A DNA stretch of 64,000 nucleotides from the NCBI RefSeq assembly GCF_003334815.1, contig NZ_QOWO01000025.1. One strand, given 5' to 3'. Positions 13,282-52,889 of the stretch are shown here, in pieces. A program made the translations under genes and the position numbers. How positions within the stretch are numbered: position 1 is the stretch's first letter; the number at the start of each line of letters is the position of its first letter. A model generated the notes under the pieces. The model did no database searches and was not told where the DNA came from. It was given only the letters and a program-made list of their open reading frames with translations. This DNA comes from Escherichia coli. GTDB taxonomy: Bacteria; Pseudomonadota; Gammaproteobacteria; Enterobacterales; Enterobacteriaceae.

Positions 13282-13932
13282 ATGCGTGAAATGAATCAGT
13301 TAGTAAATACTGAAGATTCAGCCTGGCCAATAATCCAGAACTGGTTAAAAGACGCCACAAACCATACCGAACTCTTACCGGTTAATAAAGATTTAGCCGA
13401 AACCGCACTTTATCAATTACAGGTGACAACAAAATCACCGATGGGTGCGCTTGTCTATGGCTCCGGAGGTCTGCTGATTGATAATGGTTGGTTACGCATA
13501 GCAGGATCTGGTCACCCCCGGTTGCCACGAGATCCAGTAAGTTGGACACAACGCCCTGAATTCGCAGGCGTGCGGGCTTTACCCATCGCTGACGATGTCG
13601 CAGGGGGAATTTTTGCTCTTAATGGTGGCGATCTTGGGGAAGATACTGGCTGCGTTTATTATTTTGCGCCAGATACGCTGAATTGGGAAAGTCTGGAAGT
13701 TGGATATTCTGAGTTTCTTCAGTGGGCATTATCCGGTGATTTAGATACCTTCTATGAAAATGTACGATGGCAGCAATGGCGAGAAGACGTAATAAAATTA
13801 TCGGCAACGGAAGCCTTCACGTTCTACCCTTTCTTATGGGTACAAAGTGAAGAAGCAAGAACAAGAAAAGTTATTTCGCTTACTGAACTCTGGGAAATGC
13901 AGTATCAAATGAAAGAAACATTCACGCAATAA
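13282..13932 (+). CDS. ybfG: DUF2625-family protein YbfG
   Basis: 216-aa product from ATG at 13282 with AGGAG ribosome-binding site 7 nt upstream; six-frame ORF 13174-13932 trimmed. Confidence 0.65.
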   Translation: MREMNQLVNTEDSAWPIIQNWLKDATNHTELLPVNKDLAETALYQLQVTTKSPMGALVYGSGGLLIDNGWLRIAGSGHPRLPRDPVSWTQRPEFAGVRALPIADDVAGGIFALNGGDLGEDTGCVYYFAPDTLNWESLEVGYSEFLQWALSGDLDTFYENVRWQQWREDVIKLSATEAFTFYPFLWVQSEEARTRKVISLTELWEMQYQMKETFTQ

Positions 13933-18413: not shown

Positions 18414-18944
18414 ATGGCTATCACTGGCATCTTTTTCGGCAGCGACACCGGTAATACCGAAAATATCGCAAAAATGATTCAAAAACAGCTTGGTAAAGAC
18501 GTTGCCGATGTCCATGACATTGCAAAAAGCAGCAAAGAAGATCTGGAAGCTTATGACATTCTGCTGCTGGGCATCCCAACCTGGTATTACGGCGAAGCGC
18601 AGTGTGACTGGGATGACTTCTTCCCGACTCTCGAAGAGATTGATTTCAACGGCAAACTGGTTGCGCTGTTTGGTTGTGGTGACCAGGAAGATTACGCCGA
18701 ATATTTCTGCGACGCATTGGGCACCATCCGCGACATCATTGAACCGCGCGGTGCAACCATCGTTGGTCACTGGCCAACTGCGGGCTATCATTTCGAAGCA
18801 TCAAAAGGTCTGGCAGATGACGACCACTTTGTCGGTCTGGCTATCGACGAAGACCGTCAGCCGGAACTGACCGCTGAACGTGTAGAAAAATGGGTTAAAC
18901 AGATTTCTGAAGAGTTGCATCTCGACGAAATTCTCAATGCCTGA
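18414..18944 (+). CDS. fldA: Flavodoxin 1
   Basis: 176-aa product [27 protein letters not shown] with flavodoxin FMN-binding signature. Confidence 0.95.
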
Positions 18945-19147
18945 TGTGATGCGGCGTAGACTCATGTCTACGCCGTATTAATAGATAATGCCAATCAAAA
19001 TAATTGCTACAAATTTGTAACTTTTGCTGTTGTACCTGTACAATGTCCCGGTGTTCAAGTGGCCTTGCCGTTGTAAATGTAAGCTGTGCCACGTTTTTAT
19101 TAACAATATTTGCCAGGGACTTGTGGTTTTCATTTAGGCGTGGCAAT

Positions 19148-19168
19148 TCTATAATGATACGCATTATC
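19148..19168 (+). promoter_or_regulatory. Fur box-like operator at fur/uof promoter
   Basis: tctataatgatacgcattatc resembles the Fur box consensus GATAATGATAATCATTATC. Confidence 0.5.
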
Positions 19169-19240
19169 TCAAGAGCAAATTCTGTCACTTCTTCTAATGA
19201 AGTGAACCGCTTAGTAACAGGACAGATTCCGCATGACTGA
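19154..19240 (+). CDS. uof: fur upstream ORF (leader peptide Uof)
   Basis: 28 codons MIRIISRANSVTSSNEVNRLVTGQIPHD; stop overlaps fur start (translational coupling). Confidence 0.75.
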   Translation: MIRIISRANSVTSSNEVNRLVTGQIPHD

Positions 19241-19679
19241 TAACAATACCGCCCTAAAGAAAGCTGGCCTGAAAGTAACGCTTCCTCGTTTAAAAATCCT
19301 GGAAGTTCTTCAGGAGCCGGACAACCATCACGTCAGTGCGGAAGATTTATACAAACGTCTGATCGATATGGGTGAAGAAATTGGTCTGGCTACGGTATAT
19401 CGCGTACTGAACCAGTTTGACGACGCTGGTATCGTCACCCGCCACAATTTTGAAGGCGGTAAATCCGTATTTGAACTGACACAGCAACATCACCACGATC
19501 ACCTGATCTGCCTCGACTGCGGCAAGGTTATCGAATTTAGTGATGATTCCATCGAAGCGCGTCAGCGTGAAATTGCCGCAAAACATGGCATTCGCCTGAC
19601 TAACCACAGTCTCTATCTTTACGGTCACTGTGCCGAAGGCGATTGCCGCGAAGATGAACATGCGCACGAAGGCAAATAA
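19233..19679 (+). CDS. fur: Ferric uptake regulator
   Basis: 148-aa ORF MTDNNTALKKAGLKVTLPRLKILEVL...; C-terminal HHDH/CxxC metal sites. Confidence 0.95.
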   Translation: MTDNNTALKKAGLKVTLPRLKILEVLQEPDNHHVSAEDLYKRLIDMGEEIGLATVYRVLNQFDDAGIVTRHNFEGGKSVFELTQQHHHDHLICLDCGKVIEFSDDSIEARQREIAAKHGIRLTNHSLYLYGHCAEGDCREDEHAHEGK

Positions 19680-51748: not shown

Positions 51749-51911
51749 ATAATTTATCCTTAAATATTCATTAAATGAATATTAGCCGCATTGCGAGGCT
51801 CGTTTATTTATACTTTTCTGACGCGACATAATACGCATAAAATAAGGCTTACGCAAAAATGGAACACATAAAAATATAATATGTTTTATCTGCAACCATA
51901 AGGAAATGATA

Positions 51912-52889
51912 ATGATTTTCACGTCAAGTTGCTGCGATAATTTATCAATAGATGAGATTATCGAACGTGCTGAAAAAGGCGATTGCGAGGCTCAATATAT
52001 TGTTGGGTTTTATTATAATCGCGATAGCGCAATTGATTCTCCGGACGACGAAAAAGCCTTTTACTGGCTGAAGCTGGCCGCTGAGCAAGGTCATTGTGAA
52101 GCACAGTATTCCTTAGGGCAAAAGTATACCGAGGATAAAAGCCGTCATAAAGATAATGAGCAAGCCATCTTCTGGCTGAAAAAAGCTGCCCTACAAGGCC
52201 ATACTTTCGCTTCCAACGCCCTTGGCTGGACACTGGATCGTGGAGAAGCCCCCAATTATAAAGAAGCGGTTGTCTGGTATCAGATAGCCGCGGAGAGCGG
52301 AATGTCTTATGCGCAAAATAATCTTGGGTGGATGTACAGAAATGGCAACGGAGTCGCAAAAGACTATGCGCTGGCATTTTTCTGGTACAAACAAGCTGCA
52401 TTACAAGGCCATAGTGACGCGCAAAACAATCTGGCCGATCTTTATGAAGACGGAAAAGGCGTTGCTCAAAACAAGACACTCGCCGCATTCTGGTATTTGA
52501 AAAGCGCACAGCAGGGTAATCGGCACGCCCAGTTTCAAATTGCATGGGATTATAACGCTGGCGAAGGGGTGGACCAGGACTATAAGCAAGCGATGTACTG
52601 GTATCTGAAGGCTGCCGCTCAGGGGAGCGTCGGCGCTTACGTCAACATCGGTTATATGTATAAACACGGACAAGGCGTTGAGAAAGATTATCAGGCTGCC
52701 TTTGAATGGTTTACGAAAGCCGCTGAATGCAATGACGCCACTGCCTGGTATAACCTGGCCATTATGTATCACTACGGAGAAGGAAGACCTGTCGATCTCC
52801 GACAGGCTCTCGACCTGTATCGTAAAGTTCAGTCATCCGGAACCAGAGATGTCAGTCAGGAAATTCGTGAGACTGAAGATTTACTGTAG
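51912..52889 (+). CDS. ybeQ: Sel1-repeat protein YbeQ
   Basis: About 325 aa with at least 7 tandem Sel1-like repeats; ATG at 51912 has better ribosome-binding-site spacing than the in-frame ATG at 51906. Confidence 0.85.
   Translation: MIFTSSCCDNLSIDEIIERAEKGDCEAQYIVGFYYNRDSAIDSPDDEKAFYWLKLAAEQGHCEAQYSLGQKYTEDKSRHKDNEQAIFWLKKAALQGHTFASNALGWTLDRGEAPNYKEAVVWYQIAAESGMSYAQNNLGWMYRNGNGVAKDYALAFFWYKQAALQGHSDAQNNLADLYEDGKGVAQNKTLAAFWYLKSAQQGNRHAQFQIAWDYNAGEGVDQDYKQAMYWYLKAAAQGSVGAYVNIGYMYKHGQGVEKDYQAAFEWFTKAAECNDATAWYNLAIMYHYGEGRPVDLRQALDLYRKVQSSGTRDVSQEIRETEDLL

Follow-up and report, generated by a model that had tools for sequence, protein, structure and literature searches.

In enterobacteria the master regulator of iron is Fur, and the uof-fur locus is a textbook case of small RNA control exerted through a leader ORF. 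The type example is the leader of Escherichia coli K-12, in which the uof ORF of 28 codons, with UCA as codon 6, overlaps the start of fur by 8 nt. Coupling of fur translation to that of uof (Vecerek, Moll and Blasi 2007; gene b4637), control by RyhB and MiaB-dependent decoding are confirmed in reviews. The published genetics, comprising uof-lacZ fusions, coupling, the G44C45 mutant of RyhB and MiaB dependence, are likewise described in several secondary sources. The fur operator, with a footprint from de Lorenzo et al. 1988, is one of 11 footprinted E. coli Fur sites, and classical Fur-repressed promoters have an operator overlapping both the -10 hexamer and +1.

The locus described here lies in a window of 64,000 nt (the whole stretch of E. 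coli DNA that was analysed, numbered from its first letter) and carries the ORF, the overlap and the UCA codon of the K-12 leader; it is the type example itself. The box identified at the locus is enclosed by the footprint of de Lorenzo et al., and overlaps the -10 and +1 of the proximal promoter, Pfur, as at the classical promoters.

The uof-fur locus

The 801 nt around the site were identical to the sequence of E. coli K-12 MG1655, and 5,425 of 5,426 complete E. coli genomes matched the locus at 95% identity or more. The label 'uof: fur leader peptide' is placed by RefSeq on exactly the uof ORF (5,425/5,426 complete E. coli genomes). In order, the genes are ybfE, fldA, uof and fur, with chiQ and chiP following on the opposite strand. 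Positions 19142-19240 hold the proximal promoter of E. coli fur together with its operator and leader. The uof-fur control region is already known, as the sequence-only reading had recognised and as the K-12 identity and the RefSeq annotation bear out. Published coordinates were converted by subtraction (window position = 729102 - old MG1655 coordinate; NC_000913, U00096.2), an offset that was verified on the fur ATG and on the sequence flanking the transcription start site (TSS). The elements at the junction of promoter, leader and gene are the following.

19150-19155, plus strand: Pfur -10 hexamer TATAAT from the promoter scan, identical with the first hexamer of the Fur box.
19150-19168, no strand assigned: Fur box TATAATGATACGCATTATC, 16/19 against the consensus GATAATGATAATCATTATC.
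19154-19240, plus strand: uof ORF, 28 sense codons and TGA (sequence read directly, ORF list, RefSeq).
19233-19240, plus strand: uof/fur overlap of 8 nt, ATGACTGA, with the fur AUG at 19233-19235 and the uof UGA at 19238-19240.
19233-19679, plus strand: fur coding sequence, 148 aa (RefSeq; NCBIfam NF006999, 309 bits against a cut-off of 146).

The uof ORF opens with ATG at 19154-19156, encodes the peptide MIRIISRANSVTSSNEVNRLVTGQIPHD and closes with TGA at 19238-19240. The peptide matched the NCBIfam family NF011344 'fur leader peptide' over residues 1-28 of 28 with 85.2 bits (cut-off 71). An ORF of 28 codons is unremarkable alone, 43 ORFs of at least 20 codons being present in 2.6 kb; the ORF list, RefSeq and the family match agree on the leader ORF that had been proposed at fur from the sequence. 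It had also been proposed that the uof stop codon overlaps the fur ATG. The two ORFs do overlap, but the TGA begins 3 nt after the end of the ATG and the two codons share no base. Judged by its geometry, an ORF ending in overlap with the fur start would make coupling possible.

Both ends of uof are built from sequence with other functions. The uof ATG consists of the last two bases of the -10 hexamer TATAAT and the next G, and it is covered by the Fur box. At the other end, codons 2-3 of fur (ACT GAY) read ACT-GA in 77 of 80 Enterobacterales, so that any ORF open in the uof frame must stop at the uof TGA.

Two variants of the frame were also observed. In Enterobacter asburiae (L045:1501-1512) codon 2 of fur is ACA and not ACT, which removes the TGA and extends the uof-like ORF to 49 codons, ending at +68 inside fur; the locus is a natural variant with the stop uncoupled from the fur start. 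In K-12-type sequence the uof frame is open further upstream (19004-19240), with 78 codons from a TTG at 19004 and 65 from an ATG at 19043, and a transcript from 19020 could therefore encode an N-terminally extended uof. A stop interrupts this extension in E. albertii and in another E. coli strain.

Conservation of the uof frame

The comparison set comprised the fur loci of 80 Enterobacterales species and six Salmonella enterica contigs. A rival explanation sees in uof a largely incidental ORF, with an ATG that is a by-product of TATAAT and the following Fur box G and a TGA forced by fur codons 2-3. It holds that the conserved elements are the operator with the -10 hexamer, an sRNA/Hfq site and a hairpin, and that RyhB acts on the fur leader directly. 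The distribution of the frame favors this explanation, for a uof-like frame (ATG in TATAATG, end at +5) was found in only 37 of the 81 sequences, and uof is thus not conserved as a reading frame among the relatives compared, although the operator is kept. The holders include Escherichia, most Citrobacter, Enterobacter, Kosakonia, Kluyvera, Leclercia and Phytobacter. Among the other leader ORFs in the 81 sequences, seven terminate at the fur ATGA, four share the frame of fur and the rest stop upstream. In Salmonella enterica the Fur box is identical and the hairpin loop is 1 nt shorter, leaving an ORF of 16 codons whose end is 30 nt short of fur. The frame is also broken, with the Fur box intact, in Klebsiella, Raoultella, Citrobacter sedlakii, Mangrovibacter, Atlantibacter, S. 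arizonae and others; indels of 1 nt in the hairpin loop account for the breaks in Salmonella and others.

The pattern of substitution points in the same direction. Variability at the three codon positions was 0.38, 0.29 and 0.40 among 22 distinct 28-codon versions of uof, with no third-position excess, and the synonymous share of single-nucleotide codon differences was 41%, against 97% in fur. The UCA at codon 6 is replaced by a Pro codon in Enterobacter and Kosakonia, and no conserved Shine-Dalgarno sequence precedes the uof ATG across the compared genera. Set against these findings, the other two frames have a lower synonymous share (26% and 11%) than the uof frame, the three most variable sites of codons 17-28 are all third positions, and ORF lengths of 28, 29 and 30 codons among genera differ by whole codons. 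At best these sequence comparisons suggest a coding signal that is weak and due to three or four sites. Variation of uof within E. coli was too low for a selection test.

The fur leader of the record titled Citrobacter freundii M-21 (L048) resembled that of Atlantibacter (L047, L049, L050) and differed from the other Citrobacter loci, which suggests a mislabelled or mixed assembly.

A covarying hairpin in the leader

The leader contains a local structure within the uof codons.

19185-19205, plus strand: conserved RNA hairpin UCACUUC-loop-GAAGUGA, a 7/7 inverted repeat inside uof codons 11-18.

The hairpin was present in both leader folds. In close relatives its arms are invariant and its loop hypervariable, and distant relatives have other but complementary arm sequences. 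In a covariance-model alignment of 79 loci, which was fitted to the structure and is thus biased in its favor, albeit with a large margin, 88% of cells were paired and six of the eight pairs showed compensatory changes. Cells with double changes numbered 33, compared with 9.8 in shuffles (0/500 reached the observed value), and slid controls paired at 31-50%. The hairpin was not recovered by RNAalifold on a plain MAFFT alignment because indels mis-registered the 5' arm, a problem solved by the covariance-model alignment. No Rfam family was detected in 18900-19400, even at E<=1. The fold of the whole leader was not more stable than those of shuffled sequences (z of -1.2 and +0.14), and only the local hairpin is claimed for this reason.

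RyhB pairing and translation signals

Two further short elements lie on either side of the hairpin.

19173-19178, plus strand: GAGCAA, complementary to RyhB U42-C47 (duplex scan against RyhB from NC_000913.3); tentative as a pairing site.
19219-19222, plus strand: weak Shine-Dalgarno sequence AGGA of fur, at a distance of 10 nt from the AUG.

Inversion of G44 and C45 of RyhB, a pair that lies within U42-C47, abolishes uof/fur repression (PMC6191717). In a windowed duplex scan the best local values were -12 to -14 kcal/mol, no better than those of shuffled targets (median -16.9). Since pairing was not above background, no RyhB site is claimed and the assignment of GAGCAA is tentative. Duplexfold with full-length RyhB gave unrealistically long duplexes and was set aside. 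The authors of PETcofold likewise found the published RyhB-uof pairing unpredictable. Codon 6 of uof, UCA at 19169-19171, is the reported MiaB-dependent codon (PMC7466049, PMC11448259).

The Shine-Dalgarno sequences of uof and fur are both weak. That of fur formed an anti-Shine-Dalgarno duplex of -4.0 kcal/mol, a value equalled at 26% of random positions; the surrounding ACAGGA is invariant in 22 genera.

These results bear on the incidental ORF in both directions. The failure of prediction tools to reproduce the published pairing is in its favor, as is the finding from northern blots that RyhB lowers the short, uof-less fur mRNA and not the uof-fur mRNA (PMC6191717). The published genetics, as reported by the secondary sources cited above, nonetheless stand against a uof with no role, and in view of these experiments and of the residual coding signal the incidental ORF is considered a doubtful explanation.

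Promoters and mapped RNA ends

The published transcription starts were placed on the window together with the results of a promoter scan.

18981-19017, plus strand: conserved AT-rich block resembling the OxyR consensus (match 14/20), just upstream of the distal promoter.
19015-19051, plus strand: distal promoter 'Puof', with -35 TTGTAA at 19015-19020 and -10 TACAAT at 19039-19044 (promoter scan) and the TSS at 19051.
19127-19132, plus strand: Pfur -35 TTTTCA (promoter scan, TTTTCA-17-TATAAT, 10/12).
19163, plus strand: main mapped fur TSS, an A (709939, 46 reads, 5' UTR of 70 nt, flank ...TATAATGATACGCA; PMC3415461 Table S1).

The main TSS falls within the Fur box; it is 7 nt past the -10 hexamer and 9 nt past the A of the uof ATG, and codon 4 of uof begins with it. 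Because this start lies past the uof ATG, the transcript from Pfur, on which repression by Fur is most direct, cannot encode uof; the only canonical start codon in frame on this transcript is a GUG at uof codon 17, in an arm of the hairpin. The uof annotation hides this TSS inside an ORF. Two minor TSSs were assigned to uof in the same source, 710051 (8 reads) and 710082 (5 reads), which correspond to 19051 and 19020 (PMC3415461 Table S1). The uof start codon is accordingly missing from the fur mRNA started at 19163 (46 reads) and present on those started at 19051 and 19020 (8 and 5 reads), where all read numbers come from a single study (Kim et al. 2012, PMC3415461), are low and may not reflect iron, peroxide or stationary phase conditions. 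A 3' end of the fldA terminator maps to 18982 in Term-seq data, which limits read-through. Translation of uof is possible only from the minor upstream starts or from transcripts that read through from fldA.

This arrangement bears on the model implied by the sequence-only reading, namely a single uof-fur mRNA that is repressed by Fur bound at the uof start and on which fur translation depends entirely on uof. The position of the uof ATG under the Fur box agrees with it, as do reviews, in which the coupling is called tight and Fur represses a single 'uof-fur transcript'. Opposed to it are the placement of the box over the -10 and +1 of a promoter that starts downstream of the uof AUG, the two northern transcripts with differing responses to RyhB (PMC6191717), and the start of the uof-bearing transcripts some 100 nt upstream at a separate, conserved promoter. 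Sinha et al. 2018 and Jaworska et al. (PMC6191717, PMC7867234) both place Pfur inside uof and a distinct Puof upstream of it, and the overlap of the Fur box with the Pfur -10 is also stated independently in the literature. A single mRNA, which the mapped TSSs contradict, is an improbable explanation. Counting against a division into two mRNAs, the 'tightly coupled' fur translation of the literature is hard to reconcile with a major mRNA that lacks uof, unless the latter is poorly translated.

Both promoters are conserved. TATAAT, or TATACT in 3 Erwinia, was found at the place of the Pfur -10 in 81/81 sequences, the -35 block GTTTTCATTT is conserved across Enterobacterales, and the core of the box, TATAATGA.ACGCATTA, is conserved throughout Enterobacteriaceae, with the -10 reaching Dickeya and Pectobacterium. 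The distal promoter CTGTACAAT and the sequence GCTACAA.TTT.TAACTTT are invariant in 18 genera, including ones without uof. Across Enterobacteriaceae the conservation of the distal promoter equals that of Pfur, and the OxyR-like block is likewise conserved.

OxyR control of fur is stated in PMC2189734, and OxyR may act at 18981-19017 on the distal promoter; the match there is the joint best in the window, tied with a site at 13741. The same block contains a weaker Fur-box-like sequence, GATAATGCCAATCAAAATA (18984-19002, 14/19). A second operator was considered for this sequence and is not claimed, as it coincides with the better-fitting OxyR-like site. The -35 of the distal promoter is overlain by a near-perfect 16-bp palindrome, GCTACAAATTTGTAAC, at 19006-19021, and a minimal start-stop ORF (ATG TAA) occurs in the long leader at 19077-19082, downstream of the distal TSS and upstream of uof.

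Further RNA ends were mapped near the fur start codon. A 5' end at 709876, corresponding to 19226 (28 reads, Kim 2012), falls between the Shine-Dalgarno sequence and the fur AUG, 7 nt from the latter, and is either a processing site or the start of a nearly leaderless fur mRNA. A very abundant 3' end at 19234 (NC_000913.3 710645, minus strand), the U of the fur AUG, is recorded in the Term-seq supplement of Adams et al. 2021 with 137,086 and 180,817 reads in two conditions, exceeding the fldA terminator; the supplement classes it as neither Rho-dependent nor intrinsic and gives it the flag 'uORF'. A leader RNA running from the TSS at 19163 to this end would measure about 72 nt. On the basis of the 5' end at 19226 and the strong 3' end at 19234, processing also shapes the fur leader.

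The Fur operator

The protected region reported for the fur promoter was converted to window coordinates.

19142-19171, no strand assigned: published Fur DNase I footprint of the fur promoter (NC_000913 709931-709960, Table 3 of PMC2189734).

The Fur box at 19150-19168 was the only match with three or fewer mismatches in the 64-kb window (0.04 expected; 3 of 100 shuffles gave any) and the best of five sites at 14/19 or higher. It contains the dyad ATAATG-N5-CATTAT at 19151-19167, complementary at 6/6 positions, and its hexamers TATAAT, GATACG, (c) and ATTATC match the GATAAT-like unit at 5/6, 4/6 and 6/6 positions. The box overlaps the core promoter at the -10 hexamer and the mapped TSS. A Fur box-like palindrome over the start region of uof had been noted from the sequence, and comparison with mapped footprints was the check named for it; the box does cover the ATG, and the published protection encloses it. 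The footprint is listed by Chen et al. 2007 (PMC2189734, Table 3), where it is cited from de Lorenzo 1988, and its agreement with the box indicates that the Fur-box-like site is a real Fur operator. That the match is AT-rich promoter sequence resembling the consensus by chance, without any action of Fur, could be argued from a first hexamer that is simply TATAAT and from an autoregulation described as mild, but this is scarcely credible for a box unique in the window at 16/19, conserved across genera at positions beyond the -10 hexamer (GA.ACGCATTA), and it is refuted by the coincidence of the DNase I footprint with the box.

The fur operator is weaker than those of siderophore genes (12.3 bits, 2 walkers; PMC2189734 Table 3), consistent with mild autoregulation. 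Repression of fur in vivo is known from the literature, where it is described as mild.

Two more Fur-box-like matches, of 15/19 each, were found at 44869-44887 and 51902-51920. Collinearity with MG1655 places them inside gltL and djlB, and they are probably due to chance.

Proposed pathway of fur expression

The sequence features, the published TSS and footprint data mapped onto them and the conservation pattern were observed directly, and Fur repression in vivo, translation of uof, coupling and dependence on RyhB and MiaB are taken from the literature. From these, the following sequence of events is proposed as the likely one. Fur with Fe2+ bound at 19150-19168 would occlude the Pfur -10 and the start at 19163. 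Bound over both, it should exclude RNA polymerase and give the known mild autorepression, and would in this way reduce the output of the short mRNA that lacks uof. Ribosomes on this mRNA, which has a 70-nt leader, would initiate fur directly, at the gene's weak Shine-Dalgarno sequence. Long mRNAs that start at 19051 or 19020, or that arise by read-through past the fldA terminator, would carry the uof AUG. Ribosomes on them would translate the 28 codons, cross the hairpin at 19185-19205 and stop at the UGA just past the fur AUG, which would allow the published coupling by termination and reinitiation. The block of uof initiation by RyhB with Hfq and the MiaB-dependent decoding of codon 6 would act on this coupling, and on the long mRNAs only. 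Fur bound at +92 to +121 of the long transcript (footprint counted from the TSS at 19051) may be at most a roadblock.

Fur repression and uof coupling would thus act largely on different mRNAs. The sequence-only reading had described autoregulation as layered on translational coupling, a description that holds for the gene as a whole and fails for one mRNA, the main TSS lying past the uof AUG. A joint reading of the locus is put forward tentatively, as a possibility. It holds that the uof ATG is a by-product of the Pfur -10 and Fur box, that most fur mRNAs cannot encode uof, and that the elements conserved inside uof are the operator with the -10 hexamer, the covarying hairpin and the ribosome-binding region of fur. 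Coupling and control by RyhB and MiaB through uof would then be limited to a minority long transcript, which originates from the distal promoter and is probably activated by OxyR, and to lineages in which the frame persists (Escherichia, Enterobacter and most Citrobacter; not Salmonella or Klebsiella).

Confirmation of the uof-fur locus is in itself nothing new, and the use of the analysis lies in clarification. A repressing operator and a coupling leader ORF share the same DNA, would be parted mostly onto different mRNAs, and the frame is not conserved in relatives as close as Salmonella. This is relevant to models of Fur homeostasis and to the use of the uof/RyhB/MiaB model in other species. 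Mild novelty attaches only to the reading of uof as a possible lineage-restricted feature of a minor transcript, set within a promoter, operator and hairpin of deeper conservation.

Comparison with related systems

A related promoter is that of fur in Yersinia enterocolitica. As in the window, fldA lies upstream and a Fur box, TATAATGAGACGCAATTGA, overlaps the -10, at 84 nt upstream of the fur ATG; unlike the window, the locus has no uof ORF (PMC7867234). The arrangement of operator and -10 therefore exists without the leader ORF, likewise in Salmonella and Klebsiella.

With respect to the leader ORF, a close parallel is sRNA control via a leader ORF as in GcvB-thrL, with termination and reinitiation where stop and start signals overlap. 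Shared with uof-fur are a short uORF that ends a few nt from the downstream AUG, a weak downstream Shine-Dalgarno sequence and an sRNA reported to block leader initiation. The uof-fur leader differs from them in that no attenuator terminator follows uof and in that the overlap ATGACTGA is neither ATGA nor TGATG. It differs from them further in that the start codon of the leader ORF is missing from the major transcript.
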